From assembly GCA_041483675.1 (NCBI GenBank), contig JBGPGE010000008.1:1211-65210 (forward strand): a stretch of 64,000 nucleotides of DNA. Reading direction: 5' to 3'. How positions within the stretch are numbered: the first letter of the stretch is position 1; every line of letters starts with the position of its first letter. Of the stretch, positions 7,177 through 25,395 are shown piece after piece. The notes beneath the pieces are model-generated. The model did no database searches. It was not told where the DNA came from and saw only the letters and a program-made list of their open reading frames with translations. The stretch is from Candidatus Binatia bacterium (GTDB lineage: Bacteria; Desulfobacterota; Binatia; UBA9968). The position numbers were made by a program, and so were the translations under genes.

Positions 7177-7608
7177 TCACTTCTTGACGATCAGCACCGG
7201 ACAGCGGGCGTAGCGCAACGTCCGTTCGGCCACGCTGCCGATCATGAGCCGTTGAAACCCGGTCCTGCCGTGGCTCCCCATGACGATCATCGCGGCATGA
7301 GATTTTTTCGCTTGATCGGCGATGGCGCTGGCCGGCTCCACGGCCCTGACCAACAGCGGCCGGAACGTGCCCGGTTTGAGACGAAATCGTTTGATAAATT
7401 TCACCAGCGCCTGCCGCGCATCCTGCTCCAACTTCTGAATGATATCGCCGAAGCCGGCTTCCAACGGAAACGCAAAGACGGCTGAAACGACATGAAGGAT
7501 GACCAGCTTGCTCCTGTCCTTTTTCGCCAACCCTAGCGCGAACCGAAGGGCGGCCTCGGAGCCTTTCGAAAAATCGACCGGCACGAGATAAGTTTTGGAT
7601 GCTGCCAC
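7177..7608 (-). CDS. universal stress protein (single Usp domain)
   Basis: LVPVDFS...ILHVV...MGSHGRTGFQRLMIGSVAERTLRYARCPVLIV. Confidence 0.9.
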   Translation of the reverse strand: MAASKTYLVPVDFSKGSEAALRFALGLAKKDRSKLVILHVVSAVFAFPLEAGFGDIIQKLEQDARQALVKFIKRFRLKPGTFRPLLVRAVEPASAIADQAKKSHAAMIVMGSHGRTGFQRLMIGSVAERTLRYARCPVLIVKK

Positions 7609-7678
7609 GGTCCCTCCTTGTCTGCCGAATATACGCCTGCAGGCCGGAAAGTTTCAACTGCTTGACCTTTCGCAGTCA

Positions 7679-7693
7679 GCAGAAACCATGCCA
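7679..7693 (-). promoter_or_regulatory. sigma54 -24/-12 promoter (TGGCATGGTTTCTGC)
   Basis: GG and GC separated by exactly 10 nt. 70 nt upstream of the usp ATG at 7608, in the correct orientation. Confidence 0.6.
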
Positions 7694-7754
7694 AGGAGCG
7701 AGTCCTCGGAGACGCCGCTCGTTTCATTCGAATCCCCCGATAATTCTCAGTGTC

Positions 7755-7771
7755 TTTCGCACAAGTGAAAA
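7755..7771. promoter_or_regulatory. candidate enhancer (UAS) inverted repeat TTTCGCAC-AA-GTGAAAA
   Basis: Lies between the two divergent sigma54 promoters, 65-95 nt from each. Resembles the palindromes at 15350, 16981 and 20073. Confidence 0.35.
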
Positions 7772-7853
7772 AAACGGCGTCGAAACTTGCAGCGATGCGA
7801 AACAATGGATCGCCGCCGGCTGCGATATCGCCCTCTTCGCGCGCGCCTGAGGG

Positions 7854-7868
7854 AGGCATGTTTCTTGC
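7854..7868 (+). promoter_or_regulatory. sigma54 -24/-12 promoter (AGGCATGTTTCTTGC)
   Basis: GG-N10-GC spacing. 30 nt upstream of the GTG start at 7899 (AAGGAGG RBS lies between). Confidence 0.55.
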
Positions 7869-7898
7869 TCATGTTCGGCGCTGCAAGGAGGAAACGCC

Positions 7899-8813
7899 GT
7901 GTACACAAGAATCTTAGTCCCGCTGGACGGATCGCCGCGATCCGAGGGAATTCTGCCTTACACCCGCGCTTTAGCGAACGCGCATAAAATCCCGCTGGAG
8001 CTGCTGCATGTCATAGAGCCTCAAATTATTTCCACCTTCTCCGACCCGGCTCATGCGCGCTATGCGGATGTCGTGGAAGCCGACATGCGAAGAAACGGCC
8101 TCGCCTATCTGAAGACGGTCGCCGCGTCGCTCCCCAACTCCGCGGCGGTGCGCTGTTCGGTGTACGTGGGAAATCCCGCCGAGGTGATCGTCGACAGCGC
8201 CGCGGGCCAGGCCGGCACCTTGATAACCATGGCGACGCACGGCCGTTCCGGGATTCAGCGCTGGCTGATCGGCAGCGTGGCCGACAAGGTGCTGCACGGA
8301 ACAACCAGCCACCTCCTTTTGGCCCGAACCGAGACCGGCCACAAAAATCACGAATCGGCTGCTCTCAAAACGGTCATCGCGCCGCTGGACGGCTCCGGCC
8401 TTGCCGAGACTGCGCTGCCCGCCGTCGTTGCCCTGGCCAAAACCATGGCCCTGGAGATCGTGCTGGTCCGGGCGTTCATCCCGCCTTCGGGCGCTCTATA
8501 CGCCACCGACGAATATGTGCCCAACCTGATCGAAATCACCGAGCAGGCGCGACGGGAAGTGAAAAGCTACCTGGAGGGAAAAGTTCAGCAATTGCAGGCA
8601 GAAGGATTGAGCCGAGTCTCTTACCTGCTCGTGGAAGGGCAGGCCGCCGCCGAGATCATCGATCTGGCGCGCAAGACTCCCGACAATCTGGTGGCCATCT
8701 CCACCCACGGGAGATCGGGGGTGGGCCGCTGGGTGTTGGGCAGCGTCACCGACCGCGTGGTGCGCTACTCGGGCGATCCGGTGCTGATAATTCCGCCGAA
8801 CAAAGGCAAGTAG
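7899..8813 (+). CDS. tandem universal stress protein (two Usp domains)
   Basis: Two repeats of the Usp signature (ATHGRSGIQRWLIGSVADKVL and STHGRSGVGRWVLGSVTDRVV). Confidence 0.9.
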   Translation: MYTRILVPLDGSPRSEGILPYTRALANAHKIPLELLHVIEPQIISTFSDPAHARYADVVEADMRRNGLAYLKTVAASLPNSAAVRCSVYVGNPAEVIVDSAAGQAGTLITMATHGRSGIQRWLIGSVADKVLHGTTSHLLLARTETGHKNHESAALKTVIAPLDGSGLAETALPAVVALAKTMALEIVLVRAFIPPSGALYATDEYVPNLIEITEQARREVKSYLEGKVQQLQAEGLSRVSYLLVEGQAAAEIIDLARKTPDNLVAISTHGRSGVGRWVLGSVTDRVVRYSGDPVLIIPPNKGK

Positions 8814-9027: not shown

Positions 9028-9453
9028 CTAGCGCCACAGCCGGCGTAACTCTTCCGGCAGGATATTCTTGACGTCGTCGATCTCGCCGTCGCTGATGTGC
9101 CTCGCCAGCACGTTAAAGACTGCGCGAGCGACCTTTTCCGCGTCTACCCCCTCGCTGTTTCTGAACGCGCTCTTCACATGAGCGAGGAATTCGTCCTGGT
9201 GCCGCTCCTTGACGGGCTTACCGCTGGGATTCCAACCCTCGTAGTAACAACCCCGAACCAGCATCGGCAACTGGGCCGCAAGGTGCGCGGCCTCCGCGAC
9301 CGAGAGCCGATCGCGCAGCGCGTGAAGCACGCTCCTGAGCGCCGTGTAGGCCTTATGCTCGTCCTCCCACCCCAGCTCCCGCATGAGATCGGTCAGCCAG
9401 ATATGGGTTTTCTCCAGAGTCTTGCTGAAGAGTGTGTTGACGTTTGCGTTCAT
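9028..9453 (-). CDS. DUF2267 domain-containing protein
   Basis: Typical DUF2267 sequence (TLEKTHIWLTDLMRELG...AYTALRSVLHALRDRLSVAEAAHLAAQLPMLVRGCYYEGW). Confidence 0.8.
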   Translation of the reverse strand: MNANVNTLFSKTLEKTHIWLTDLMRELGWEDEHKAYTALRSVLHALRDRLSVAEAAHLAAQLPMLVRGCYYEGWNPSGKPVKERHQDEFLAHVKSAFRNSEGVDAEKVARAVFNVLARHISDGEIDDVKNILPEELRRLWR

Positions 9454-9486
9454 CCCGTGTCCCCCCTTGCTTATCCCGTGCGTGGA

Positions 9487-11952
9487 TCACGTCCCCGCCG
9501 GGGACCCTTCGCGACCGTTTGCGCTGAAGAACCCTTTGAGCCCCAACGCCAAGTCTCTGAGCCTGCGACCGACCGCGTCGTTCACGGTTCCTTCCTCCCC
9601 TATTCTCCCCGCACGCATCCCGGTGAGGATCTCCAGACCTTCGTCGATCGTGCGCACCGGATAGATGTGAAACTTGCGCTCCGCCACCGCCTGAACGACA
9701 TCGGCGCGAAGGATCAGATTGCGAACGTTCGCCGCGGGGATCATGACGCCTTGCTTGCCCGACAGTTCCGTTGTCCGGCAAACGTCGTAGAAGCCCTCGA
9801 CCTTTTCATTCACGCCGCCGATCGCCTGCACTTCGCCCGACTGGTTCACCGATCCGGTCACCGCGATGTCCTGGCGCAGCGGGATGCCCGAAAGACGGGA
9901 CAACAGCGCATAGAGCTCGGCCGAGGAGGCGCTGTCGCCCTCTACGCCGGTGTAGGATTGCTCGAAACAGAGACTCGCTGATAGAGCCAGCGGTTTGTCC
10001 TGACCGAAGCGGTTTCGAAGGTAGCCGGACAGAATGAGCACCCCTTTGTCGTGGATGCTCCCGCTCAAGTGAGACTCGCGCTCGATGTTAACGATCCCCG
10101 CTTGACCCATCGCCACGCTGGCCGTAACTCGCGCGGGCCGGCCGAACGTGTAGGTTCCGATATCGAGCACCGACAGCCCGTTGACCTGCCCTACTTTCCG
10201 GCCGTCGATGTCGATGAGCAGCGTGCCCTTCGCGATCAATTCTCTGATCTCCTCCTCGATGCGGTTCGAGCGAAACACTCTCTGCTGAAGCGCCCTTTCG
10301 ATATGGCGGCTGCCGACCGTTTGATCTTTGTCCTTCCGGGCCCAATAGGCGGCTTCACGCACCAGATCGGCGACTTCCGCGTAGGATGCCGAGACCTTTT
10401 CCCGATCCTCCGCTTTCCGAGCGCCGAACTCGGCCAACCGCTCGACGGCCCCGTGATCGAGGTGCGGGAGCTTCTCCTCGCTGCAGAGTTTCGCGACCCA
10501 CTGGGCATACACCAACAGGTGGCCCTGCTCCAGTTCCATGGCGTCGCGAAAATCCGCCCGCACCTTGAAGATCGCGCGGAATTCCTCATCCCAGATGCAT
10601 AGGAGGTGATAAAGCAGCGGGCTGCCGACGACAACTACCTTCGTGTTGATGGCCACCGGCTCGGGCTTCAAACCGGAGGCGGAGAAGAGGGCGAAAGGTT
10701 CGTAGGTCTCCATCTCGATCAGACCGCTTCTCAGCGTGCGCCTGAGAACCTTCCACACCGCCGGCTCGGTCAGAGCATCCTCCAGGCTGAAAATCAAATA
10801 GCCGCCGTGGGCGCGCAACAGCGACCCGGACTTGATCCGCGTAAAATTCGTCACCACCCGCCCGAAGCGATCCACCACTCGCTCGATGGTTCCGAAGAGA
10901 TTCAAATACGTCGGCGAGCCTTCGACCAGCACGGGCGCGCCCTCGGTCCCGGAGTTATCCACGACCAGATTCACGTCGTATTCCAAAAAGGCGTCACGCT
11001 CCTGCTGGTGGGGGGCAAACAGGAAGGGCATTAAGGGAGCCGTCCCTTCTTTAAAATCGTCCAGGTTGTCGAGCATGTGCGCCCGCACCTCTAAAAGGTA
11101 GGAGCTCACTTTTTTATTGTCCATCTCGCGCTCGATCTCCGCGATCAAGGGATTGAGAAGCTGCTCGCAGAACCGGCGCTCCACCATACGGATATCGGCC
11201 TCCATCTCGCGCATGACCTCGCGCTGCTTGCCGGCCATCTCCGCCATCTCGGCCATCAAGCCCTGCTGCCGTTTTTCGATCTCCGCCTGCTCCGCCTCGC
11301 TCAAGCGAGAAAAATCCTTGGGACTCTGCACCGGCTCGCCGTCGACGATGGGGATAAACAGGATCTCGCCGCCATGACCGACCTGCACCAGGAAGCCTCT
11401 CTCCCGCGCCAGCTTTTCAAACTGCGCGCTTAGCTCTTGCGCCCGCCTGCCGTACTTCTCTCTCAGCAGCGTCTTTTCCCTGTCGAATGCCTCATGGCGA
11501 AAAGCCTTGGGAAGTTCCTCTCTCAACCGTTTGACCAGGTTGCGCATCAACTCTCTCAGGCGATGGCCTTTCCCCGACTCAAGATAGACCGCCTGTGGAG
11601 CATCGGGCCGCTGGAAATTGTGCACGTATACCCAATCGCCCGGCGTCGGCGAGGCGGCCGCCCGCTCGGCAATCCAGTGCTGGAGAGCCGGCAGCTTCTC
11701 GGCTCCGGCGAGACCCGAGACAAAGATGTTGAATCCGCTTTGGGGCATGCCGAGACCGAGTTCAAGGGCGGCCAGCGCGCGTTCCTGTCCGGCGAAACCC
11801 AGCGCCGGGGTGAGCTCTTCCGTCGTCGTAAAGGCGATGTCGAGTTTGACGGAGAATCTGAGCTCATCGGCCCGAAGCTCAACCGGAAGGCAGAAGCCGT
11901 CCGATCCTCCAGCGCCTTCTCGCTCCTTTTCCACTATCGCAGCCCGGCTCAT
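9487..11952 (-). CDS. Lon-like protease with degenerate Walker A (LonC-like), S16 Ser-Lys protease domain
   Basis: C-terminal Lon protease domain (VEGDSASSAELYALLS, GGVNEKVEGF). AAA-like domain with GLAGAEKL in place of GxxGxGK[ST] and a coiled-coil insertion. Start chosen at ATG 11952, which overlaps the hsp20 stop as ATGA. Confidence 0.8.
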   Translation of the reverse strand: MSRAAIVEKEREGAGGSDGFCLPVELRADELRFSVKLDIAFTTTEELTPALGFAGQERALAALELGLGMPQSGFNIFVSGLAGAEKLPALQHWIAERAAASPTPGDWVYVHNFQRPDAPQAVYLESGKGHRLRELMRNLVKRLREELPKAFRHEAFDREKTLLREKYGRRAQELSAQFEKLARERGFLVQVGHGGEILFIPIVDGEPVQSPKDFSRLSEAEQAEIEKRQQGLMAEMAEMAGKQREVMREMEADIRMVERRFCEQLLNPLIAEIEREMDNKKVSSYLLEVRAHMLDNLDDFKEGTAPLMPFLFAPHQQERDAFLEYDVNLVVDNSGTEGAPVLVEGSPTYLNLFGTIERVVDRFGRVVTNFTRIKSGSLLRAHGGYLIFSLEDALTEPAVWKVLRRTLRSGLIEMETYEPFALFSASGLKPEPVAINTKVVVVGSPLLYHLLCIWDEEFRAIFKVRADFRDAMELEQGHLLVYAQWVAKLCSEEKLPHLDHGAVERLAEFGARKAEDREKVSASYAEVADLVREAAYWARKDKDQTVGSRHIERALQQRVFRSNRIEEEIRELIAKGTLLIDIDGRKVGQVNGLSVLDIGTYTFGRPARVTASVAMGQAGIVNIERESHLSGSIHDKGVLILSGYLRNRFGQDKPLALSASLCFEQSYTGVEGDSASSAELYALLSRLSGIPLRQDIAVTGSVNQSGEVQAIGGVNEKVEGFYDVCRTTELSGKQGVMIPAANVRNLILRADVVQAVAERKFHIYPVRTIDEGLEILTGMRAGRIGEEGTVNDAVGRRLRDLALGLKGFFSANGREGSPAGT

Positions 11953-12371
11953 AAGGACGATCCCGTCTTGGCGAGTTTCGGCAGGATAACCCGCAGGACC
12001 CCTGCGCTGAAATCGGCCTTGATCCGGTCCTTGTCCACCGACTCGGGGAGCGGTACTTCCCGAAAGAAGTCGCCGAACGAGCGCTCCTGGCAACAGAATC
12101 TGCCATTGCGATAGCTCCGGTCGGAGGAACGTCGGCCCTGCAGGAGCAATTTATTCCCCTCCACTTCTACCTTCACGTCTTCTCTTCTTACCCCGGGAAG
12201 GTCCGCATCAAGAATAAACGCTTCCGGTGTCTCGTAGAGATCCACAGCGGGGCGCCACTCCAGCAACTCGGTCCGAAGGCCCCACGGACGGTGAATAATC
12301 TCCTCGAAGAGCCGGTCCAGCTCTTTGTGGAGGCGTAGCGGGAATGAGTACAACTTACTGTGTGAGGGCAT
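11949..12371 (-). CDS. Hsp20/alpha-crystallin family small heat-shock protein
   Basis: Alpha-crystallin domain (PAVDLYETPEAFILDADLPGVRREDVKVEVEGNKLLLQG...FSAGVLRVILPK). Confidence 0.9.
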   Translation of the reverse strand: MPSHSKLYSFPLRLHKELDRLFEEIIHRPWGLRTELLEWRPAVDLYETPEAFILDADLPGVRREDVKVEVEGNKLLLQGRRSSDRSYRNGRFCCQERSFGDFFREVPLPESVDKDRIKADFSAGVLRVILPKLAKTGSSL

Positions 12372-12414
12372 ACGCTCGCCTCACGATCTCTTGAGCGACC
12401 GACGCGCCTCCTTC

Positions 12415-13875
12415 CTAGGCGGCGACAGGCAGCGTCAATCCCAACCCTTTGGCTACCCCCATGCCGTACTCCGGGTCGGCCTTGAGAAAGTGCTGAATTT
12501 GCCGTTCCTGAATGTAACGCGGCACCGGCTTCATGGCATTGACGATATTTTCTATGAGCCTTCTCTTCTCATCCGGCTTCATCAGACGAAAGAGGTTTCC
12601 CGCCTGGGTGTAGTCGTCGTTGCCCACGCGATGATCGTAGCGGTCCGCGTCCCCGGAGATTCGCAGCGGCGGCTCCTTCAAGCCGGAATCTTCCATCGGC
12701 CCGTCGAAGCTGTTGGGCTCGTAGTTGACGGCGCCGCCGTAGTTGCCGTCGAAGCGCATCGAGCCGTCGCGGTGATAGGTATGCACCGGACAGCGCGCCT
12801 TGTTGACCGGCAGATCCGCGTAGTTGGCGCCGCCGAGGCGGTACCGATGGGCGTCGGCGTAGGCGAAGATGCGGAACTGGAGCATCTTGTCCGGCGAGAA
12901 GCCGATGCCCGGCACGATGTTGGACGGCTCGAACGCCGCCTGTTCGACCTCCGCGAAATAGTTCTCCGGGTTGCGGTTGAGCTCCATGATCCCCACCTCG
13001 ATCAGCGGGTAGTCCTTGTGCGGCCAGACCTTGGTCAGATCGAAGAGGTTATAGGGAGTTTTCTCGGCCTCCTTCTCGGGCATGATCTGGACGCAGAAAC
13101 GCCATTTGGGGAAATCGCCGCGCTCGATCGCTTGAAACAGATCGCGCTGATGGCTCTCGCGATCGTCGCCGACGATCTTGGCGGCTTCGCCGTCGGTGAG
13201 GCATTGTATGCCCTGCATGGTCTTGAAGTGAAACTTCACCCAGAAGCGCTCGTTTTTCCCGTTGATGAGGCTGTAGGTGTGCGAACCATAGCCGTTGATG
13301 TGCCGGTAGCTCTTGGGGAGGCCACGATCGGAAAACAGAATCGTCACCTGATGGAGACTTTTCGGAGAGAGGGACCAAAAATCCCACATCGCCGTGGGGC
13401 TCCGCAGGTTGGTCTTGGGGTCGCGCTTTTGCGTGCGTATGAAGTCCGGAAACTTATACGGGTCGCGCACGAAAAACACCGGCGTATTGTTGCCGACCAG
13501 GTCCCAGTTGCCTTCCTCGGTGTAGAACTTGAGCGCGAAGCCGCGCACGTCGCGCTCCGCGTCGGCGGCGCCGCGCTCGCCGGCAACGGTCGAGAACCGC
13601 AGGAAGCAGTCGGTCTTCTTGCCGGCTTGCGAAAACACCTTGGCCTTCGAGTATCGGGCGATGTCGTGGGTGATAGTCAACGCGCCGTAGGCGCCGGAGC
13701 CTTTGGCGTGGACTATCCGCTCGGGAATCCGCTCCCGATTGAAGTGCGCGTGCTTCTCAAAGAGCTGCCAGTCCTGGACCAGCAGCGGCCCGCGCGCGCC
13801 TGCCGTCAGTGAATTTTGGTTATCGGTGACCGGGCTCCCGCTCGCCGTGGTCAATGTATTTTGCTTCTTCGCCAT
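12415..13875 (-). CDS. katA: monofunctional heme catalase (small-subunit type)
   Basis: [26 protein letters not shown]-like and RLFSY-like regions. 486 aa. Confidence 0.95.
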
Positions 13876-13878
13876 AAA

Positions 13879-14232
13879 TCATTTCTCCTTGGTCGGATTT
13901 CGTTGTTGCGACCGATGCGCAGGCTGCCGGCGGCGCGAAACCCGCTTATTGCATAGCTCCTTGAGCTCGGCGAGCACCATCTGTTCCGCCTCCAACCAGT
14001 CGTCCAGGTCGCAGCCGTGGATCCGGCCCCGTTTGCAGAACAAGTCGTATGCCTTCTCGCCGATTTTTATATGAAGCGTATGGTCGCCGATGGCCGGTTC
14101 GGTGAGATGGAGGGCGAAGGCCGCGCCCGGCGGGGGAAGGCTTTTTCTGTACGATTGATTGCCGATGGTTGACTCGGGAAGGTAAGGGACGTGGGGCGGC
14201 TTCGTCGGCTCGACGTTTTTCTGCTTTTCCAT
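13879..14232 (-). CDS. DUF2934 domain-containing protein
   Basis: IGEKAYDLFCKRGRIHGCDLDDWLEAE matches the DUF2934 signature. 3 nt upstream of the catalase gene. Confidence 0.65.
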   Translation of the reverse strand: MEKQKNVEPTKPPHVPYLPESTIGNQSYRKSLPPPGAAFALHLTEPAIGDHTLHIKIGEKAYDLFCKRGRIHGCDLDDWLEAEQMVLAELKELCNKRVSRRRQPAHRSQQRNPTKEK

Positions 14233-14254
14233 GCGACACTCCCTGCGCGTGAAG

Positions 14255-17080: not shown

Positions 17081-17545
17081 ATGACTTTCGTCTACGAAAC
17101 AGAGATCGAGTGGACCGGAGAGCGCGCCGGCCGCTTGCGAGCGCCGCATCTGCCGCCGCTCGAAGTCTCCGCGCCGCCGGAATTCGACGGACGCGACGGC
17201 GTGTGGACTCCCGAGCATCTCTATGTCGGCGCCGTAGCGTCGTGCTTCATGACGACATTTCTGGCGATCGCGCGGAATTCCAAGCTGGAGTTTGTCAGTT
17301 TCACGACAACGGCAAGCGGCAAGCTGGAGAAGGTACCGGAAGCCGGATTGCAGATGACGGAGATTGTCTTGAAGCCGCGGCTCGTCATTCACAGCATCGG
17401 CGACACCGACCGCGCGCGGCGGATTATCGAAAAGGCAGAGAAAAATTGCTTGATTTCAAACTCTATCAAGACGGCGATCCGCGTCACCCCTGAAATTTAC
17501 CATCACCAGGACCCCGTTTACCCGTGTCCGACGTTGGCGATTTAG
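17081..17545 (+). CDS. OsmC/Ohr family peroxiredoxin-like protein
   Basis: Two conserved Cys contexts (VGAVASCFMTTF and AEKNCLISNS). About 150 aa. Confidence 0.85.
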   Translation: MTFVYETEIEWTGERAGRLRAPHLPPLEVSAPPEFDGRDGVWTPEHLYVGAVASCFMTTFLAIARNSKLEFVSFTTTASGKLEKVPEAGLQMTEIVLKPRLVIHSIGDTDRARRIIEKAEKNCLISNSIKTAIRVTPEIYHHQDPVYPCPTLAI

Positions 17546-17574
17546 CCTACGAGGAGATTAAGCAGGGGCGGCTT

Positions 17575-18225: not shown

Positions 18226-18246
18226 GCGGCTCGCCGGCCGCGCCGG

Positions 18247-18891
18247 CTATCGATCCGGCCGGCGGCAAAGATGGCGCTCAAACCATTCGGATGCCAGGCG
18301 CGCGACTTCTTCCAAAGCGCCGGGTTCTTCAAACAGATGTGTCGCTCCCGGAATAATCTTTAACTCCTTCTCCGCTTTGAGCCGTTTGTAGGCCCGCTGA
18401 TTGAGATCGATCACGATATCGTCAAGGCCGCCGACGATGAGCAGAGTAGGCGCCGTGACTTGCTCCAACGCCGTCCAAGCCAGATCCGGCCTGCCCCCAC
18501 GGGACACCACTGCGCTAACGACCGGTCCCAATGCTGCGGCGGCGCGAAGGGCTGCTGCGGCTCCGGTGCTGGCCCCGAAATAGCCGACGGCAAGGGCTGC
18601 GGTTGCAGCCGACTTAGCCACCCAGCGCGTGGCGTTCTCCAATCGATTGGTCAGCAGATCGATATCGAAACGCGTTTCGTAGTCGGCATCCTCCTGCGGC
18701 GTCAAGAGATCCATCAGCAGGGTGCCAAGACCGCTCGCGCGCAATACTTGCGCGACATACTGATTTCTTGGGCTGCGGCGGCTGCTGCCGCTGCCATGAG
18801 CGAACAAAACAACCGCGTCCGCGTCCGAGGGAATCGCCAGCTCTCCCTCGAGCACGACGGAGTCCACCGGGATGTGGACCAGTTCCTTCAC
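18247..18891 (-). CDS. dienelactone hydrolase-like alpha/beta hydrolase
   Basis: VVLFAHGSGSSRRSPRN...GYFGASTGAAAAL nucleophile elbow, and IPGATHLFEEPG. Confidence 0.8.
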   Translation of the reverse strand: MKELVHIPVDSVVLEGELAIPSDADAVVLFAHGSGSSRRSPRNQYVAQVLRASGLGTLLMDLLTPQEDADYETRFDIDLLTNRLENATRWVAKSAATAALAVGYFGASTGAAAALRAAAALGPVVSAVVSRGGRPDLAWTALEQVTAPTLLIVGGLDDIVIDLNQRAYKRLKAEKELKIIPGATHLFEEPGALEEVARLASEWFERHLCRRPDR

Positions 18892-18923
18892 GCCGCCCTC
18901 ACGCCCTGAGACTTAGATACAGA

Positions 18924-18950
18924 AAAGGCCCAGGTTATGCCTGGGCCTTT
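18924..18950 (-). terminator. rho-independent terminator after the CBS gene
   Basis: 11-bp stem aaaggcccagg/cctgggccttt with a 5-nt loop, followed on the minus strand by TTTTCTGT. Confidence 0.55.
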
Positions 18951-19000
18951 CCGGGCAAGGGCAGCCACGCCCAACTCCATCTGCGCCAAACGCCTTCGCG

Positions 19001-19429
19001 CTAGGCGGTCCCGACCGGCGTCGTTTCCGCCACAGCCTTACCCAGCTCAGCCATCTCGTCGCTGAGCAGTGCGATGACGTCGTCCATGGTGACGATGCCG
19101 AGCACCTCGTCCAGGCCGTCAACCACCGGAACGCGCCGAACGTGCTGCGCGTGCATGAGAGTGGTCAACTCTCTGAGGCCCTTGTCTACGGGGATCCGCA
19201 CCGGGTTGCGAGTCATAATCTCGCTCACCTTGGTCTTAAGCGGATCCCGCTTCTCTCCGGTCACCTTTAACGCGACATCGCGGTCGGTCAGGATGCCGCA
19301 CAACTTGCCGCGTTCCTCTACCACCATACAGCCGACGTTCTTTTCCCCCATCATGCGGCAGGCCTCCACGATGTTGTTTTCCGGAGAGATACTGACAACG
19401 CGCCGTTGGCAAAATTCCTGCAATGACAT
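19001..19429 (-). CDS. CBS domain pair protein
   Basis: Two CBS motifs (VGCMVVEERGKLCGILTDRD and VRRVPVVDGLDEVLGIVTMDD). Confidence 0.9.
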   Translation of the reverse strand: MSLQEFCQRRVVSISPENNIVEACRMMGEKNVGCMVVEERGKLCGILTDRDVALKVTGEKRDPLKTKVSEIMTRNPVRIPVDKGLRELTTLMHAQHVRRVPVVDGLDEVLGIVTMDDVIALLSDEMAELGKAVAETTPVGTA

Positions 19430-19440
19430 GGCACACCTCC

Positions 19441-19944
19441 CTACTCCACCTTCACCTTAGTTTCTTTTTTCTTCGCCTCCTCGGTCTTGGGGAGGTGAAT
19501 TTCCAGCACGCCGTTCTTGAACGACGCTCGCGCTTTCTCCATTTGAACGTCCGCGGGCAACTCCATGCTGCGGCTGAAGGAGCCGTACGACCGCTCGCAG
19601 CGGTAGAAATTCTTTTCCTTAACTTCCTCCTCCTTTTTCTTCTCGCCCTTGATCGTCAGGTGGTGATCGGCCAGGTTCACCTCGATATCTTCTTTGCTCA
19701 TGCCCGGCAGCTCCACTTTGGCCACGATCTCGTCTTTCTCCTCGTAGAGATCCACGGCCGGAGTGGCGAGGGCGGCCGTCCTCGGTCCCCACCAGCGCTC
19801 ATCCAAAATTGGCCGTAAGCGGCGACCGAAGAAGTCTTCGAACATATCCCCCATTTCCCGCTCCCATCGGGCCATTTCCGTAAATGGGCGCCACGGGACC
19901 AGTTTTTTCTCCTCTTTCGAGCCTTGCGGCATTGGCTTTGCCAT
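19441..19944 (-). CDS. Hsp20/alpha-crystallin family small heat-shock protein
   Basis: PAVDLYEEKDEIVAKVELPGMSKEDIEVNLADHHLTIKGE...FKNGVLEIHLPK. Start at ATG 19944 with an AAAGGAGGA RBS. The 255-aa ORF in the track is an over-extension. Confidence 0.9.
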   Translation of the reverse strand: MAKPMPQGSKEEKKLVPWRPFTEMARWEREMGDMFEDFFGRRLRPILDERWWGPRTAALATPAVDLYEEKDEIVAKVELPGMSKEDIEVNLADHHLTIKGEKKKEEEVKEKNFYRCERSYGSFSRSMELPADVQMEKARASFKNGVLEIHLPKTEEAKKKETKVKVE

Positions 19945-19987
19945 AGCGAGTCCTCCTTTCGTGACCGTTGCTATCCGATTCAAGAAA

Positions 19988-20002
19988 GCATCTTTCATGC
20001 CA
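19988..20002 (-). promoter_or_regulatory. sigma54 -24/-12 promoter (TGGCATGAAAGATGC)
   Basis: GG-N10-GC spacing. 43 nt upstream of ATG 19944. Confidence 0.6.
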
Positions 20003-20072
20003 GCGCACAGATGACGAGAACCAGCTCGAATGCGCCATTTTTCGACGTTTTTCAATCCGCGGACCGACCCTG

Positions 20073-20090
20073 TTTTGCGCCCGTGCAAAA
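20073..20090. promoter_or_regulatory. candidate UAS near-palindrome TTTTGCGC-CC-GTGCAAAA
   Basis: 70-88 nt upstream of the sigma54 promoter at 19988. Same half-site as 15350-15365. Confidence 0.4.
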
Positions 20091-20219
20091 AACTACGGGC
20101 AAGGAATCGCGAAGCTGCAAACGGGATTTGTCTATGATAGAAAGGTCGCTGCGCCTGAGCGGCGTTCGCGTTCGCTACGAGGGGGCATAGTTCTTGCTCG
20201 CTTTTCATTCAATGTAAAC

Positions 20220-20320
20220 CCCGCCTCTTGAGGCGGGCACAAAACCGATGGGGTTTCCAAAGGGGAGAAGCGGCAGCTCTCCCCTTTGGTCGAACACGGG
20301 GATTCAAACCCCGTGTTCGA
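20220..20320. repeat. three consecutive GC-rich hairpins (6-bp, 12-bp and 12-bp stems)
   Basis: cccgcc-tcttga-ggcggg; ccaaaggggaga-agcggcagc-tctcccctttgg; tcgaacacgggg-attcaaa-ccccgtgttcga. The last two are directly abutting. Confidence 0.7.
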
Positions 20321-20349
20321 TATAAGTTGATTTTTGAAATTTACGCACT

Positions 20350-21681
20350 ATGGCCGACGAGCGCGTTTTGATAATGGGGGCGGCAGGCCGGGACTTTCAC
20401 ACCTTCAACGTCTACTTCCGCGACAATCCCGACTACAAAGTGGTGGCTTTCACCGCCGCGCAAATCCCCGGCATCGAGAACCGCTGGTATCCGGCAAGCC
20501 TCAGCGGGAAGTTCTATCCCCAGGGCATTCCCATCTACCCGGAAGATTGGCTGGAGTGCCTCATTCGCGACCAGGGCGTGAACCAGGTGGTGTTTGCGTA
20601 TAGCGACGTCTCTCATGCGACGGTCATGCACCTGGCCTCGCGCGCGCTCGCCGCCGGCGCCGACTTTCGTCTGTTGGGGCCGGCGCATAGTTTCCTCAAG
20701 TCGACGCGCCCGGTGATTTCGGTCTGCGCCGTGCGCACCGGCTGCGGCAAAGGCTCGGTGGTCCGCCGGATCGCGACGCTGCTCAGGGAGCGGCAGCTTC
20801 GGCCGGTGGTGGTGCGCCATCCCATGCCCTACGGCGACCTGGCCGGTCAGGCGGTGCAGCGCTTCGCCGCGATCGAAGATTGCGACCGGCAGCATTGCAC
20901 GGTTGAAGAGCGGGAAGAGTACGAACAACACATCCAACAGGGCGTGGTCGTGTACGCCGGCGTCGACTACGAGCGCATTCTCCGCTCGGCGGAGCAGGAG
21001 GCGGACGTCATTCTCTGGGACGGCGGAAACAACGACTGGCCGTTTTTCCGGCCCGACCTGGAGATCGTGCTGCTCGATCCGCATCGCGCCGGCCACGAGC
21101 TGCTCTACCATCCCGGCGAAACGAATCTCCGGCGGGCGCATATCCTGATCGTCAACAAGCTCGACTCCGCCCCGGTCGAGGGCGTCCGGCAAGTGATAAA
21201 GAACATCGCCGAGATCAACCCGGCCGCCACGGTGATTCAGGCCCGTTCGGCGCTGTCCGTCGACCGCCCTGAGTTGATCCGCGGCAAACGGGTCCTGGTC
21301 GTCGAAGACGGGCCGACGCTGACGCACGGCGAGATGGGATACGGCGCCGGCGTGATCGCGGCCCGGCAAAACGGAGCTTCCGAACTGCTCGACCCGCGCC
21401 CTTTCGCCAAGGGAAGTCTGGTCGAGACGTTTCGCCGCCATCCCTGGGTGACGCAGGCGCTTCCCGCCATGGGCTATTCGACTGCTCAACTCGATGACCT
21501 CGCCGCTACGATCGCCGCCGTTTCTTGCGACGCGCTCGTGCTGGCGACGCCGATCGACCTGCTCCGCCTGATTCCCATAGACCGGCCGTGCGCGCGCGTG
21601 CGCTACGAGCTTGCGGAGATCGGCCGCCCCGATCTGGCCGAGGCGATCGCAGTATTTGTGCGCCAGCGTGTGAAGCGATGA
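20350..21681 (+). CDS. cyclic 2,3-diphosphoglycerate synthetase-like GTPase-fold protein (COG2403-like)
   Basis: N-terminus VLIMGAAGRDFHTFNVYFRDNP and P-loop CAVRTGCGKGSV. Recognised from memory of archaeal CpgS-like proteins. Confidence 0.65.
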   Translation: MADERVLIMGAAGRDFHTFNVYFRDNPDYKVVAFTAAQIPGIENRWYPASLSGKFYPQGIPIYPEDWLECLIRDQGVNQVVFAYSDVSHATVMHLASRALAAGADFRLLGPAHSFLKSTRPVISVCAVRTGCGKGSVVRRIATLLRERQLRPVVVRHPMPYGDLAGQAVQRFAAIEDCDRQHCTVEEREEYEQHIQQGVVVYAGVDYERILRSAEQEADVILWDGGNNDWPFFRPDLEIVLLDPHRAGHELLYHPGETNLRRAHILIVNKLDSAPVEGVRQVIKNIAEINPAATVIQARSALSVDRPELIRGKRVLVVEDGPTLTHGEMGYGAGVIAARQNGASELLDPRPFAKGSLVETFRRHPWVTQALPAMGYSTAQLDDLAATIAAVSCDALVLATPIDLLRLIPIDRPCARVRYELAEIGRPDLAEAIAVFVRQRVKR

Positions 21682-21743: not shown

Positions 21744-23093
21744 TCACTTATCCTCGATACCCAGCCTCTCCATCTTCCGATAGAGCGTCGAGAGGCTTAA
21801 ACCCAGCATTTCGGCGGTGCGCTTTTTATCGCCGGAAGTTTTCTCCAACAGCCTCGCGATGTGGACCCGCTCGCATTCTTTCAGGACTTCCTCGAGATTG
21901 TCGTTCAAAGGATGTTCCTGCGGCGGCGCCTCATGGCCGGGCAGATCGGCGGGCGTAATCCATTCGCCGTTGCCCAGGATCATCGCCCGTTCCAGCGTGT
22001 TATCCAATTCGCGGACATTGCCTTTCCAGGGAAGCGACATGAAAACCCTCATGGTGACGTTGTCGACCCCGCGATAATTCTTCTTCATCTCCTGGTTATG
22101 GCGGTGGATCAGATGCTCCACCAGCAAAGGAATGTCTTCGCGTCTCTCGCGCAGCGGCGGGATATGGACGCCGACGACGTTCAGGCGATAGTAAAGATCC
22201 TCGCGGAACCTGCCGGCTTCGATTTCCAAGTTCAACTCCCGGTTGGTGGAAGCTAGGATGCGCACGTCGACCTGAGTCGGGTTGGTCGAGCCTACGGGCA
22301 AGACTTTTTTTTCTTCGATCACGCGCAGCAGCTTGGGCTGCAGGCTGAGCGGCATCTCGCCGATTTCATCGAGAAAAATCGTGCCGCCGCGCGCGCGCTG
22401 AAAGAGCCCCTCTTGCGAATTGGTGGCGCCGGTAAAGGCGCCTTTGACGTAGCCGAAGAGCTGGCTTTCGAGCAGCGTCTCCGGGATTGCGCTGCAATTG
22501 ACCGGCAGGAACACGCGGTCGCGGCGCGGGCTGCGCAGGTGGATGGCGCGCGCCACCACTTCCTTTCCCACGCCGCTCTCGCCCGTGATAAGCACCGTCG
22601 AAGGAGTCGGCGCGACCTTTTCCACCAGCGCCAGGATTTCCTGGATCGCCTTGCTGGATCCCACCGGCTGCTCCGGCGCGGAATATTTGGACGCCTCTCT
22701 GCGGAGCAGCTGGAGCTCCCAGGCAAGGCTGCGGTGCTCCATCAGATGATGCACCTTGCGCAAGACGTCTTCGAAGATCAACGGCTTTAAGATGTAATCC
22801 TGCGCTCCCAGGCGCAACGCCTCCACCGCCGTATCCACCGATGCGTAGGCGGTCATAAGAATAGCGAGAGTTTGCGGCGAGACTTCGCGCACATGCTTGA
22901 GCACGGCAAGGCCGTCGGCCGCGGGGAGCCTCAAGTCCGTCAGCACAAGGTCGAGATCCAGCTCGTCGGCGAGTTTGATGGCTGCCGCGCCGTCGGCGGC
23001 TTCGTGCACCTGGTAGCCTTCCTCGCGAAGGAGCTCGCAAAGGCTCCGGCGAGCCGCTTCCTCGTCTTCGACAACTAGAATGTTTCCTGCCAT
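21744..23093 (-). CDS. sigma54-dependent response regulator (NtrC family: REC, AAA+, Fis-type HTH)
   Basis: REC (ILVVEDEEA...DLVLTDLRLP), Walker A GESGVGKE, GAFTGA loop (KGAFTGA), C-terminal HTH (TAEMLGLSLSTLYRKM). Confidence 0.93.
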   Translation of the reverse strand: MAGNILVVEDEEAARRSLCELLREEGYQVHEAADGAAAIKLADELDLDLVLTDLRLPAADGLAVLKHVREVSPQTLAILMTAYASVDTAVEALRLGAQDYILKPLIFEDVLRKVHHLMEHRSLAWELQLLRREASKYSAPEQPVGSSKAIQEILALVEKVAPTPSTVLITGESGVGKEVVARAIHLRSPRRDRVFLPVNCSAIPETLLESQLFGYVKGAFTGATNSQEGLFQRARGGTIFLDEIGEMPLSLQPKLLRVIEEKKVLPVGSTNPTQVDVRILASTNRELNLEIEAGRFREDLYYRLNVVGVHIPPLRERREDIPLLVEHLIHRHNQEMKKNYRGVDNVTMRVFMSLPWKGNVRELDNTLERAMILGNGEWITPADLPGHEAPPQEHPLNDNLEEVLKECERVHIARLLEKTSGDKKRTAEMLGLSLSTLYRKMERLGIEDK

Positions 23094-23128
23094 TCGGCGC
23101 CTTTTCGATCAACCTGCATTGCTTTGTC

Positions 23129-23158
23129 AGAAGTGCGAATAGCCCTATGGGCACTTCT
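23129..23158. promoter_or_regulatory. inverted repeat AGAAGTGC-N14-GCACTTCT in the leader of the activator gene
   Basis: Perfect 8-bp arms seen directly. 36-65 nt upstream of ATG 23093. Confidence 0.3.
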
Positions 23159-23217
23159 CACACGCGCGAAAAAGTGACGCGGATTAAGCGAACTTCAATA
23201 CTTTGTGTTGTGGTCTT

Positions 23218-23232
23218 GCAAATCTCAGACCA
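23218..23232 (-). promoter_or_regulatory. weaker sigma54-like element (TGGTCTGAGATTTGC)
   Basis: Correct GG-N10-GC spacing and a TTTGC -12 box, but the -24 box is TGGTCT. 124 nt upstream of the activator ATG. Confidence 0.3.
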
Positions 23233-23322
23233 CCCGATGCGTCGCCACTATGCCGGTGAGCGTGATCGGCGGGTTCCGCACAAAGGGATGTTGCAGAAGG
23301 AGCAAAAAGAACACCACCGGGG

Positions 23323-25395
23323 TCAAGCGGTCGGAGCCGAAGGCGTAAGCGGGAACGTGACACGGAACACGGTTCCTTTTCCTCGCTCGCTGGAATAGGA
23401 AACGGCGCCTCCATGGGCTGAAATAATCTGCCGCACGATCACCAGGCCGAGTCCGGTGCCCGATTCCTTCGTCGTGACGAACGGCTCGAAGACATCGACT
23501 CCATCCGGAATCCCGACACCGCTGTCGAAGATTTCCAGGAGCACTTCCCCACCGGCCTCGCGCGCCCGCAGCGTCAACGCGCCGCCGCGCGGCATCGCCT
23601 CGGTGGAATTCTTAATCAAGTTCAAGATCGCTTGCTTGAGCTTGTCGCCGTCAGCTTGCACAAACGGCAGGTCCGGAGGAAAAACCTGCTCGACGCGGAT
23701 GCCCAGGGCGGCGCAACGACTCCTTTCAAGCTCGACGACTTCCTTAGTCACGGCGGCCAAGGAAGTCGGCCGCAAACTGTACTTATCTCGCCGCGAGAGC
23801 GAGCTGAACTCGTGAAGCAGATTGCTGAGGCGGGAAATCTCGTCCGTCAGCCTGCGCAGCGTGGACTTGGCGGGTCCGTCCAAACCTGCTCCCTCACGCC
23901 CCAGATGCCGTTCAAGAAGTTGCGCCGTGAGCGACATGCTGTTGAGCGGGTTGCCGATTTCGTGGGCCAGCTTAGCCGCGGTGGCGCCAATGGCGGCCAA
24001 ACGTTCGCTCTCGATCAATCGATCTTGGAGCTTGGATTTTTCGGAGATGTCGCGAACGAAAGCCGTATAGCGGATATCGCCTTCGGTCGCGACCTCGGTG
24101 ACCGAAAGCTCGGCGGGGAACACATCGCCGTTTTTCCTTCGCGCCGCTACGGTCCGAATGCGCCCGATGACCCGTCGCTCTCCGGTCCGCTCGTAGCGGG
24201 CGATATAGTCCTCATGCTCGCTGGCGTAAGGCTCGGCCATGAGGAGGCCGATTTTCTGTCCCTGCACTTCGCCCGTCGCGTAGCCGAAGATTTTCTCCGC
24301 CGACCGGTTGAACAGCTTGATCCTTCCCGCTCGGTCGATCGAGACCACGCCATCCTGCGTCGCCTCGATGAGAGTCTGCAGCCACGTTTCCGCTCGCGCT
24401 CGCTCGCGGACGTCGATCTCCTCGGCGCGCTTGCGCTCGGTAATGTCCATGGAGATGCCGCAGACGGCGTATAGAACGCCGGCGGAGTTGCGTAGCGGGA
24501 ATTTGTTCGAGCTATAGACGTGAAGGCCGTCGTCCTGCATGACTTGCTCCTCGAACTCAAGGGGAACTCCGGCCTCAATGGTTTTAAGATCGTTCGCCCG
24601 GTACGCATCCGCCAACTCTTTCGGGAAAATGTCGTGATCGGTTTTTCCGGCGATCTGTTCCGCGCTTAAGTGAAACAATTTTTCGTATTGGCGATTCACC
24701 AGCAGGTATCGCCCTTCCCGGTCCTTCAGGTAGATGATCCTCGTCGAGGTGTCGACGATCGCGCGCAGACGTCCCTCGCTCTCGCGCAGCGCGTGCTCGG
24801 CGCGCTTCAGCTCCAAAACCGGGCCTAGGTGACTCGCAATCATCGAGATGGTCTCGATGTGCGCCTTGTCTTCTTTGCGAAGCTCGAAGGCCCAGAACAC
24901 CAGGACAGCCACCACCCGGCCGCCCGCCATGACGGGAATGCCCAGCGAGGTCTTGAGCCCCGCCTCCTTTGCGATCTGGAAGCGGAGGTTTTCCGGAACT
25001 GCTGAAATATCTGCAATCCACTCCGGCTGCCTCGATGCCCAGACCCGGCCGGGGAGACCGATGCCCGGACCAAACGCGACGCCCTCGCTAAACAACCTAA
25101 AAGGACGGAGGCCCTCGCGGGTCGCGCAGCATACCGGCCTGAATTCCAGAATTTCTCCGGCAGAGTTCGGGACCCACGCCTCACAATGATCCCACCCCAA
25201 AGCGGCGCACACTCCCTCCAGCGTCGCCGCCAGGGCGGAATTGAAATCGGCGGCCTCGCTGACCGCTTCAGCGATTTGCAGAAAGAGCTGGAAACGGAAG
25301 TCTTCGCTCTTCGAAGGCGTGGGAGCGAGAGTGGATCTTTTTTTTGGATGGCTATGTCGGGTCGTAAGCATCCAAAACTCAATCCCGGCATTCAC
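23323..25395 (-). CDS. sensor histidine kinase (GAF, two PAS, HisKA, HATPase_c), soluble
   Basis: H-box AKLAHEIGNPLN, N/G boxes (LNLIKNSTEAM, DSGVGIP, GTGLGL), PAS S-box-like segments and an N-terminal GAF-like region. Start may be Met9. Confidence 0.9.
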   Translation of the reverse strand: MNAGIEFWMLTTRHSHPKKRSTLAPTPSKSEDFRFQLFLQIAEAVSEAADFNSALAATLEGVCAALGWDHCEAWVPNSAGEILEFRPVCCATREGLRPFRLFSEGVAFGPGIGLPGRVWASRQPEWIADISAVPENLRFQIAKEAGLKTSLGIPVMAGGRVVAVLVFWAFELRKEDKAHIETISMIASHLGPVLELKRAEHALRESEGRLRAIVDTSTRIIYLKDREGRYLLVNRQYEKLFHLSAEQIAGKTDHDIFPKELADAYRANDLKTIEAGVPLEFEEQVMQDDGLHVYSSNKFPLRNSAGVLYAVCGISMDITERKRAEEIDVRERARAETWLQTLIEATQDGVVSIDRAGRIKLFNRSAEKIFGYATGEVQGQKIGLLMAEPYASEHEDYIARYERTGERRVIGRIRTVAARRKNGDVFPAELSVTEVATEGDIRYTAFVRDISEKSKLQDRLIESERLAAIGATAAKLAHEIGNPLNSMSLTAQLLERHLGREGAGLDGPAKSTLRRLTDEISRLSNLLHEFSSLSRRDKYSLRPTSLAAVTKEVVELERSRCAALGIRVEQVFPPDLPFVQADGDKLKQAILNLIKNSTEAMPRGGALTLRAREAGGEVLLEIFDSGVGIPDGVDVFEPFVTTKESGTGLGLVIVRQIISAHGGAVSYSSERGKGTVFRVTFPLTPSAPTA

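Follow-up and report, generated by a model that had tools for sequence, protein, structure and literature searches.

In soils and aquifers, where they meet fluctuating oxygen, the Binatia and many Acidobacteriota are numerous and for the most part uncultured. A stretch of 64,000 nucleotides from Candidatus Binatia bacterium (GenBank assembly GCA_041483675.1, contig JBGPGE010000008.1, positions 1,211 to 65,210; hereafter the window) carries a dense island of stress genes and putative dormancy genes, and raises the question of which signal and which regulator command them. We examined the island at positions 7177-25395 of the window, with gene families assigned by Pfam, NCBIfam and PDB searches on a GC3-guided map of the open reading frames (ORFs) of the window. 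In this uncultured bacterium of soil or groundwater, the 18-kb island looks like a low-oxygen survival programme, in which a FixL-type haem kinase and a sigma-54 activator would govern about 20 genes. A sequence-only reading, made from the letters before these searches, had likened the gene content to the DosR dormancy regulon of Mycobacterium tuberculosis. All gene families that it listed were located in the island by the Pfam and PDB searches, and a ribosome hibernation factor (HPF) fused to a cold-shock domain, DUF2267, DUF2934, an NTP transferase and a cyclic-2,3-diphosphoglycerate-synthetase-like (cDPGS-like) gene are new relative to it. Comparison loci are designated L followed by three digits, and homologue proteins of the collection P followed by four digits.

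The two regulatory genes are adjacent:

23323-25395, minus strand: GAF-PAS-PAS histidine kinase (Pfam), the true start of which is likely Met9 at 25371
21744-23093, minus strand: NtrC-type activator (Pfam)

According to Pfam and PDB alignment, the kinase consists of a GAF domain, a first PAS domain (PAS1), a second PAS domain of the FixL haem type (PAS2, residues 336-462), a HisKA and an HATPase domain. Pfam confirmed the GAF-PAS-PAS arrangement read earlier, and the kinase is predicted to be soluble, no membrane segment being found. PAS2 aligned without gaps to the haem domain of Bradyrhizobium japonicum FixL (1DP6, E = 3e-26) and to that of R. meliloti FixL (1D06, E = 4e-25), whereas its match to the haem PAS of E. 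coli DosP was much weaker (1e-13). In the alignment with the B. japonicum protein, the columns of which were fixed by the mutant PDB entries 1Y28 (R220A) and 2CMN (R206A), His394 corresponds to the proximal H200, Arg400 to R206 and Arg414 to R220. In FixL, O2 is bound by the distal arginine R220, through which its binding leads to inhibition of the kinase, and R206 is a propionate-binding residue. His394, His478 of the H box, and the N and G boxes were invariant across 4 aligned kinases. Of the 120 kinase homologues that scored best in the protein collection, 94 retained the motif MAEPYASEHDGYIARYERTGE.RAIGRIR. By its conserved residues, PAS2 is thus a FixL-type haem PAS domain predicted to bind haem.

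The GAF domain (residues 31-200) had the GAF domain of Aquifex Nlh1 as best PDB match (7e-5). A haem GAF of the DosS/DosT type was considered and rejected: the PDB search with residues 31-200 gave no DosS or DosT match, and no histidine was common to the GAF domains of the window and L001. PAS1 and PAS2 together weakly resembled the tandem PAS of MmoS (3EWK, 6e-8), the first PAS of which binds FAD. The sequence-only reading had compared this kinase with the GAF-domain haem kinases of mycobacteria. Haem-ligand residues were found in PAS2 (His394, Arg400, Arg414) but the GAF domain carries no haem signature; since it has no similarity to DosS/DosT, the analogy is wrong in detail. A gas sensor working through haem nevertheless remains a sound proposal, and its most likely ligand would be O2.

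The partner protein is predicted to be an NtrC-family sigma-54 enhancer-binding response regulator with complete motifs. Pfam identified the Response_reg (9e-28), Sigma54_activat (4e-69) and HTH_8 (3e-11) domains, and the complete receiver (REC) set Asp53, Thr81 and Lys103, the GAFTGA motif at residues 216-221 and a Fis-type helix-turn-helix (HTH) were read directly. Identity to the activators of 8 orthologous loci was 68-96%, against at most 49% for paralogues, and the recognition helix SLSTLYRK was kept across the orthologues.

We then consider the promoters. A sigma-54 promoter was expected to read TGGCAC-N5-TTGCW, its GG and GC invariant at a spacing of 10 nt, and to lie upstream of a gene, on the strand of that gene. 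A scan of the window for TGGCAY-N5-TTGCW with at most one mismatch gave 8 matches against 2.2 expected, and 7 of the 8 lie in intergenic regions of the island. All seven have the orientation of the gene that follows and lie 29-69 nt ahead of its start codon, except P8 at 151 nt, the larger distance being due to a 131-bp insertion in the leader. An eighth island site, with two mismatches, precedes the third Usp gene (15463-15990). With it, each of the eight predicted transcription units has, ahead of its first gene, a -24/-12 site that retains both GG and GC. Sigma-54-like sites stand ahead of 9 of the 18 island genes and of 4 of 39 genes elsewhere in the window (Fisher p = 0.002), a clustering that exceeds chance.

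These promoters point away from each other in four pairs, each around a central 16-bp palindrome, TTYGCA-N4-TGCRAA, which we predict to be the binding site of the activator. With at most one mismatch, the palindrome occurred 5 times in the window against 0.65 expected, and all five copies fall in the four divergent intergenic regions. These modules, and the region between the kinase and activator genes, are:

7678-7869, module 1: P1 at 7693-7678 (minus strand), palindromes TTCGCACAAGTGAAAA at 7756-7771 and CTTGCAGCGATGCGAA at 7786-7801, P2 at 7854-7869 (plus strand)
15261-15432, module 2: P3 at 15276-15261 (minus strand), perfect palindrome TTTGCACGGGTGCAAA at 15350-15365, P4 at 15417-15432 (plus strand)
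16871-17034, module 3: P5 at 16886-16871 (minus strand), palindrome TTCGCAGCCGTGAGAA at 16981-16996, P6 at 17019-17034 (plus strand)
19987-20198, module 4: P7 at 20002-19987 (minus strand), palindrome TTTGCGCCCGTGCAAA at 20074-20089, P8 at 20183-20198 (plus strand)
23155-23232, minus strand, kinase-activator intergenic control region: site TGGTCTGAGATTTGCA at 23232-23217, then palindrome TTCGCGCGTGTGAGAA at 23170-23155

In the last of these regions, TTCGCGCGTGTGAGAA, a further strong copy of the palindrome, is located 62 bp before the activator start codon, downstream of TGGTCTGAGATTTGCA, which is a ninth, weak sigma-54-like site with two mismatches. This arrangement suggests that the activator gene is autoregulated through the ninth promoter and its downstream palindrome; for the window the suggestion is tentative, because TGGTCTGAGATTTGCA is weaker than the 'TGGCTT...' sites of L001 and L081. 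We found also, between P3 and P4, a second perfect palindrome, TTGTCAACCTTGACAA, at 15318-15333, 17 bp from the main palindrome of that module; it might serve the activator as an additional, divergent site or be bound by a different regulator. The segment that lengthens the P8 leader (20208-20338, between P8 and the start of the cDPGS-like gene) folds into three hairpins and is missing from L161. It had no Rfam match and no other copy in the window, and could be an element of the MITE (miniature inverted-repeat transposable element) or REP (repetitive extragenic palindromic) kind, or a leader structure.

The transcription units that the eight promoters would drive contain the following genes, assigned by Pfam unless otherwise stated:

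5039-7608, minus strand: P1 unit usp-norC-norB, on one strand
7177-7608, minus strand: Usp (P1)
6426-7124, minus strand: NorC with an extra cytochrome c domain (P1; NorB_cytochrome_c-like and cytochrome c domains)
5039-6400, minus strand: NorB (P1; Pfam and PDB match 3O0R_B)
7899-8813, plus strand: tandem Usp with two Usp domains, driven by P2 (promoter 29 nt upstream)
9028-15220, minus strand: P3 operon of six genes from NTP transferase to DUF2267, on a single strand with short gaps
14255-15220, minus strand: mannose-1-phosphate-guanylyltransferase-like NTP transferase (P3)
13879-14232, minus strand: DUF2934 (P3)
12415-13875, minus strand: catalase (P3)
11949-12371, minus strand: Hsp20-2 (P3)
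9487-11952, minus strand: LonC-like protease, with an ATGA start/stop overlap (P3)
9028-9453, minus strand: DUF2267 (P3)
15463-15990, plus strand: Usp, driven by P4 (promoter 30 nt upstream)
16216-16830, minus strand: HPF (S30AE) with a fused cold-shock domain (P5)
17081-17545, plus strand: OsmC (P6 operon, 17081-18225)
17524-18225, plus strand: phosphoribosyltransferase (PRTase; P6 operon), convergent with the next gene, its start likely about 17 codons downstream of 17524
18247-18891, minus strand: dienelactone hydrolase (DLH)/alpha-beta hydrolase-like protein (P7 operon, 18247-19944)
19001-19429, minus strand: CBS pair (P7 operon)
19441-19944, minus strand: Hsp20 (P7 operon; promoter 42 nt before the start)
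20350-21681, plus strand: cDPGS-like P-loop enzyme of 443 aa, driven by P8 (assigned by fold match)

The regulatory arrangement is preserved in a close relative, 'Deltaproteobacteria bacterium RIFCSPLOWO2_12_FULL_60_19', whose cDPGS-like protein is 95% identical to that of the window and which carries L161-163. At about 91% nucleotide identity, these loci contain the same island with every promoter and palindrome retained, and the palindrome substitutions in L161 are confined to the central N positions. Three window segments are missing from L161: 3847-7161 (norCB and two ORFs), 9430-12405 (hsp20-lonC) and 17540-19436 (PRTase-DLH-CBS). These three large gene blocks sit within or at the ends of sigma-54-driven units, and regulon membership therefore changes between close strains without new promoters. 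The catalase gene, whole in the window, has lost 552 bp internally in L161 and L163 (12708-13259 of the window), where it is split into fragments of 231 aa and 88 aa, and no catalase was called in the corresponding gap of L162. Two intergenic segments are also missing from L161, 8798-9033 (236 bp, after the tandem Usp gene) and 16026-16226 (200 bp, after the third Usp gene); the former is rich in 'CCCCCTT(G)NTAAGGGG(G)' palindromes.

More distant loci were sought in several ways. A scan of reference genomes with the activator gave mostly NtrC-family paralogues of 40-48% identity, which served as negative controls, and a single orthologue, in the Candidatus Binatia metagenome-assembled genome (MAG) of L001 (68% identity, the closest reference-genome activator). 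A metagenome scan with the kinase alignment gave mainly generic PAS kinases; among the matches listed, L081 was the only orthologous locus and L085 was so in part. Using first the cDPGS-like gene and then the kinase homologues as anchors was more productive than either scan, and the activators of the kinase-anchored distant loci were 68-81% identical to that of the window. The contents of these loci were:

L168: NTP transferase, Usp, tandem Usp, norCB, kinase, activator, CBS
L169: five Usp, DUF2267, Hsp20, NTP transferase, HPF-cold-shock fusion, PRTase, CBS, kinase, activator, Nar-like oxidoreductase
L170: Usp, ribonucleotide reductase, DLH, hemerythrin, three CBS, kinase, activator, nicotinate phosphoribosyltransferase (NAPRTase), PRTase, Band 7, RtcB
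L172 (Acidoferrales MAG): Hsp20, Usp, HPF-cold-shock fusion, ribonucleotide reductase, kinase, activator, phosphoribosyl pyrophosphate (PRPP) synthase, PRTase
L173: Hsp20, Usp, HPF-cold-shock fusion, two Usp, kinase, activator, FtsH, glycogen phosphorylase, CBS, PRTase

The kinase and activator genes are adjacent in all orthologous loci, and the partner always combines REC, sigma-54 AAA+ and HTH_8 domains. In every orthologous locus recovered (L001, L081, L161-163, L168-L170, L172 and L173) the pair stands beside Usp, Hsp20, CBS or HPF genes with -24/-12 promoters, which is the co-occurrence that the sequence-only reading had proposed as a check. Sigma-54 sites equivalent to those of the window were present in L001 and L164-L173, and the norCB genes of L168 carry their own sigma-54 site and palindromes. 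In the 11 non-window loci (227 kb), 25 of 35 palindromes lie within 150 bp of a sigma-54 site, against 8.3% expected (p = 8.5e-20), and the distance upstream of the -24 element has its mode at 71-74 bp. Five palindromes are located 99-118 bp downstream of a sigma-54 site in kinase-activator spacers, an order that the window shares; the order sigma-54 site then palindrome was seen in the spacers of L168, L169, L172 and L173, and a sigma-54 site also in those of L170, L001 and L081. Where the cDPGS-like gene lies away from the regulators (L164-L167), a sigma-54 site precedes it by 15-60 bp, accompanied by the palindrome in L164 and L166, and the CBS-OsmC operon of L165 and L167 likewise has both elements. 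L166 and L170 belong to one 661-kb contig, and the regulon is therefore dispersed in that genome.

The association was also examined in loci of at least 10 kb retrieved by activator similarity only. Usp or Hsp20 genes occurred in 3 of 3 loci with an adjacent FixL-type kinase and in 4 of 69 without it (p = 6e-4), and in none of 5 loci with a FixL-type kinase but without the activator. The acidobacterial loci L020 and L059 have non-orthologous activators (43%) and FixL-type kinases beside Usp, Hsp20 and CBS genes with -24/-12 sites. It seems that this combination of kinase, activator and stress genes originated, or diverged, on more than one occasion. Taken with the eight oriented sites and the shared palindromes, the conservation in relatives strongly supports the sigma-54 wiring first proposed from the letters.

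A mechanism can be proposed on this basis. By analogy with FixL, O2 held on the PAS2 haem by the distal Arg414 would keep the kinase off, and upon falling O2 the deoxy-haem kinase would autophosphorylate on His478 and pass the phosphoryl group to Asp53 of the NtrC-type activator. The activator would then oligomerise on the palindromes between the divergent promoters, typically 71-74 bp upstream of the -24 element, and its GAFTGA loop would drive sigma-54 holoenzyme to form open complexes at the eight promoters, while the ninth promoter with its downstream palindrome would probably serve autoregulation. The output of about 20 genes would comprise Usp and CBS nucleotide-binding stress proteins, Hsp20 holdases, the Lon-like protease, nucleotide salvage enzymes and the cDPGS-like enzyme. 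The HPF-cold-shock fusion, with its RNA-binding cold-shock domain, would silence ribosomes; the NO reductase would detoxify or respire NO; and catalase with OsmC could plausibly provide peroxide defence for re-oxygenation. For this organism, induction of the circuit by hypoxia is a prediction from sequence.

We consider it probable that the island is one sigma-54 regulon under the adjacent two-component pair, serving a low-O2 persistence programme. Several points weigh against this interpretation. FixL has been taken as the model for the sign of the haem switch, and some haem kinases, such as AfGcHK and NmpU, are active with O2 bound (PMC11841059). Among close homologues of the kinase, P0252 of L169 has a tyrosine in place of the proximal histidine and P0244 a serine in place of the distal arginine. 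The kinase has two more sensory domains, GAF and PAS1, so O2 may be one input among others. The sigma-54 site preceding the activator gene is weak in the window, rpoN is absent from the window, and most promoters have a single strong palindrome. NtrC-type activators usually require at least two sites. Some of these points would suit the same circuit answering to another signal or with another sign, the kinase being active with O2, NO or CO bound, or dominated by a ligand of GAF or PAS1, in an oxidative, nitrosative or energy-stress regulon. Catalase and OsmC would fit an oxidative-stress regulon too and, with Hsp20 and Lon, suit oxidative or proteotoxic stress; the NO reductase suits NO stress; and neither GAF nor PAS1 has an assigned ligand, the MmoS likeness with its FAD-binding PAS being weak. 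PAS2 is, however, specifically FixL-like and has kept the coupling residue Arg414, and Usp, HPF, CBS and NO reductase genes, with the class-II-like ribonucleotide reductase and hemerythrin of the relatives, typify the hypoxia regulons of Mycobacterium, Burkholderia and Myxococcus. We regard a different signal or sign as unlikely, though as the likeliest of the rival explanations.

Two further explanations concern the wiring itself. The palindromes might be CRP/FNR/FixK-type boxes of a regulator encoded elsewhere, with the two-component pair controlling only some of these genes or others. The perfect sites, TTTGCAC-N2-GTGCAAA, do include TTGC-N6-GCAA, of the pattern TTG(C)-N6-(G)CAA, which we take to be within the loose FixK2 consensus. 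FNR-type boxes are also known at Anr-dependent Usp genes (PMC3721108). But the conserved positions GCA...TGC include ones that are free in FNR/FixK boxes, and variant sites have TCGC and GAGA where FNR requires TTG and CAA. In addition, the palindromes keep their constant distance from the -24 element of sigma-54 promoters in many genomes and are also present in the kinase-activator spacers of orthologues, no CRP/FNR-family gene was found in any of the islands, and only one sigma-70-like match occurred in the promoter regions; such a regulator is accordingly improbable. That there is no common regulation at all, the stress genes lying by accident beside an unrelated two-component system and the -24/-12 matches being due to chance, is scarcely credible. 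When two mismatches are allowed, the excess of -24/-12 matches in the window is indeed modest (33 against 23 in shuffles), but at one mismatch or fewer all seven of the matches in island intergenic regions are correctly oriented, the island differs from the rest of the window in the Fisher test given above, and sites and spacing are kept across loci whose activators are only 68-81% identical.

NorB matched the structure of P. aeruginosa cytochrome c-dependent NO reductase (cNOR) NorB with E = 1e-111 (3O0R_B) and 4e-109 (4XYD_A), and by this homology and the adjacent NorC subunit, norCB is predicted to encode a cNOR. As had been noted from the letters, these genes lie directly 3' of a regulon member, the Usp gene at 7177-7608 (minus strand), and no terminator-like site was found between usp and norC by a scan of the minus strand. 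The P1 unit probably extends into two small ORFs and UbiA. The NorC protein (232 aa) has its additional cytochrome c domain C-terminal to the NorC-like part, a form shared with the NorC of L168; this domain may be a fused electron donor for cNOR. The two ORFs between norB and UbiA (3855-4942, minus strand), both missing from L161, may encode accessory subunits of cNOR: one product is a membrane protein of 140 aa with four helices and a weak COX1/DUF2871-like match, and the other is secreted and about 200 aa long.

In the HPF protein, a C-terminal cold-shock domain on the S30AE factor replaces the usual dimerisation domain of long HPF. The same fusion recurs in L001, L161-163, L169, L172 and L173, always inside the same regulon. 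The PRTase is encoded beside the kinase/activator pair again in L001, L169, L170, L172 and L173; stand-alone forms of 216 aa are abundant among its homologues, and the top 120 are all stand-alone. For the 443-aa cDPGS-like protein, no Pfam or NCBIfam match and no PDB sequence match were obtained. The family is extremely conserved: more than 8000 homologues were returned, under such names as 'predicted GTPase' or 'cyclic 2,3-diphosphoglycerate synthase', and identity is 72% or higher in each of the best 120. The top Foldseek match of its AF2 model (pLDDT 80.5) was the cyclic 2,3-diphosphoglycerate synthetase of M. fervidus (8ORU, E = 1.7e-19), with only 15% identity and a TM of about 0.49, and the modelled resemblance is at the level of the fold only. 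In other genomes, homologues of this gene are often found beside glycogen phosphorylase and a P-type cation ATPase.

How does this circuit compare with known ones? The FixL-FixJ(-FixK) system of rhizobia shares the gap-free haem PAS, the equivalents of His200, Arg206 and Arg220 and the same HisKA and HATPase core. The island partner is, however, of the NtrC type and not a FixJ (REC with LuxR/NarL HTH), and there is no FixK relay; the kinase has an extra N-terminal GAF and PAS, and the targets are stress and persistence genes instead of cbb3, nif and fix. The regulator being of the wrong type, the island is not a FixLJ system. NtrY-NtrX of Brucella is alike in joining a haem-PAS O2/redox histidine kinase to an NtrC-family regulator of denitrification genes. 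Unlike the island kinase, NtrY is membrane-bound. To our knowledge, NtrX is generally regarded as not being a classical sigma-54 activator, and we know of no Usp/Hsp20/HPF regulon for NtrY-NtrX. In full-text literature searches, with most subscription journals outside their coverage, neither this regulon nor the pairing of a FixL-type kinase with a sigma-54 activator was found described.

The likeness to DosR lies in the output. The DosR regulon includes Rv2623, HspX, Rv2626c, Rv0079 and Rv0571c, the last as a putative PRTase (PMC5309233), and the membership given in the sequence-only reading was thus correct to that extent; the literature named Rv0571c only as 'putative phosphoribosyltransferase' and not as a PRTase-DLH fusion. 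Pfam placed single and tandem USP, alpha-crystallin, CBS pair, HPF-like factor and PRTase together in the island, and the islands of relatives add ribonucleotide reductase (Rv0570), RtcB (Rv2631) and a P-type cation ATPase (Rv1997). The two systems have overlapping output families and, here by prediction, a haem-type histidine kinase in control. DosS and DosT carry haem in a GAF domain whereas the predicted haem domain of the island is a PAS, and DosR is a NarL-type regulator at sigma-70-type promoters whereas that of the island is an AAA+ enhancer-binding protein working with sigma-54. For these two reasons the island is not a Dos system. Beyond the DosR set, it also has catalase, OsmC, LonC, cNOR and the cDPGS-like enzyme.

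Two precedents narrow the novelty. In Burkholderia cenocepacia, the lxa locus is a low-O2-induced genomic island, rich in USP and with alpha-crystallin, the genes of which have a common 'lxa motif' and for which the authors noted homology to the DosR regulon (PMC3721108). Its gene set is larger and more metabolic (polyhydroxyalkanoate synthesis, ribonucleotide reductase, phosphofructokinase), and wiring by sigma-54 and an enhancer-binding protein is unreported for it. The lxa motif is presumably FNR/Anr-like. In Myxococcus xanthus, NmpRSTU, described in 2018 and 2025, leads from a haem sensor through an NtrC-like regulator to sigma-54 and to CBS and USP targets under hypoxia (PMC6211767, PMC11841059). 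Compared with its published description, the predicted island circuit resembles it in the haem O2 pathway ending in an NtrC-like regulator, the palindromic upstream sites, sigma-54, the CBS and USP targets, the probable autoregulation of the regulator gene and the expected induction under hypoxia. The Nmp sensor is, however, a globin-coupled kinase, NmpU, with the hybrid kinase NmpS in a four-component relay, whereas the island has a single FixL-type kinase adjoining the activator; no globin or hybrid kinase gene was found in the island by Pfam. The NmpR site is GCGCA-N5-TGCGC (PMC11841059), which differs from the palindrome of the island, and the Nmp regulon is centred on oxygen use (cbb3 oxidase, HemN, hemerythrin) while that of the island is centred on persistence (Usp, Hsp20, HPF, Lon, cNOR). 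The convergence with DosR that was claimed earlier holds for the overlap in content, but its novelty is less than was assumed, lxa being a precedent for the content (PMC3721108) and NmpRSTU for the wiring (PMC11841059).

What is new, and supported by the comparisons above, is a conserved and probable oxygen-sensor/sigma-54 persistence regulon, present in uncultured Binatia and in some Acidobacteriota, the bidirectional enhancers of which are laid out with unusual regularity. A broader view, possible but short of what we would lean towards, is that the pair and the palindrome mark an undescribed sigma-54 regulon of 'hypoxic persistence' that is widespread among uncultured lineages of soil and subsurface (the Binatia, some Acidobacteriota and perhaps further groups), as a functional counterpart of DosR. 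It would have a single enhancer per bidirectional promoter pair, kept in constant phase at about 72 bp from the -24 element, and a downstream enhancer autoregulating the activator, and modules (cNOR, Hsp20-LonC, PRTase-DLH-CBS) would be gained or lost beside, mostly downstream of, sigma-54-driven genes between strains about 91% identical. In this view, the HPF-cold-shock fusion and the cDPGS-like enzyme would hint at an unstudied way of ribosome silencing and a dormancy metabolite. The locus would also show that no fewer than three unrelated transcriptional mechanisms (NarL-type, FNR-type and enhancer-dependent sigma-54) have come to control the DosR-like set (USP, alpha-crystallin, CBS, HPF, PRTase, ribonucleotide reductase, RtcB), and such repeated recruitment would argue for a functional module of non-growing survival. 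Enhancer-dependent control gives very tight off-states, which is relevant to dormancy entry and to oxygen-responsive switches. The locus supplies a testable hypothesis, with His394/Arg414, the activator, the 16-bp motif, nine promoters and a target list, and a search for the motif could predict regulon members in any related genome.

The rest of the window contains housekeeping genes (SecDF, YajC, Tgt, QueA, RecJ, CoaBC and others), and its uniform base composition and GC content give no sign of a foreign origin of the island. A perfect sigma-54 consensus, TGGCATTCTCTTTGCT, was found at 59451-59466 (minus strand), 49 nt before the ribosome-binding site and ATG of a 356-aa signal-peptide protein with no Pfam match; no TTYGCA-N4-TGCRAA palindrome is near it, and this promoter is therefore probably under another activator. 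Other regulators in the window, a PAS-REC protein beside a TPR protein at 36299-37405 (minus strand), an ECF sigma factor at 1685-2248 (minus strand) and a PIN-domain toxin at 42653-43060 (minus strand), appear unrelated to the island. Beside the kinase gene, a tRNA-Sec at 25501-25595 (plus strand) was identified by ARAGORN and was the sole match of the Rfam scan (77 bits). The synteny with L161 stops exactly at its 3' end, which suggests an insertion or rearrangement at tRNA-Sec in either the window strain or the L161 strain.

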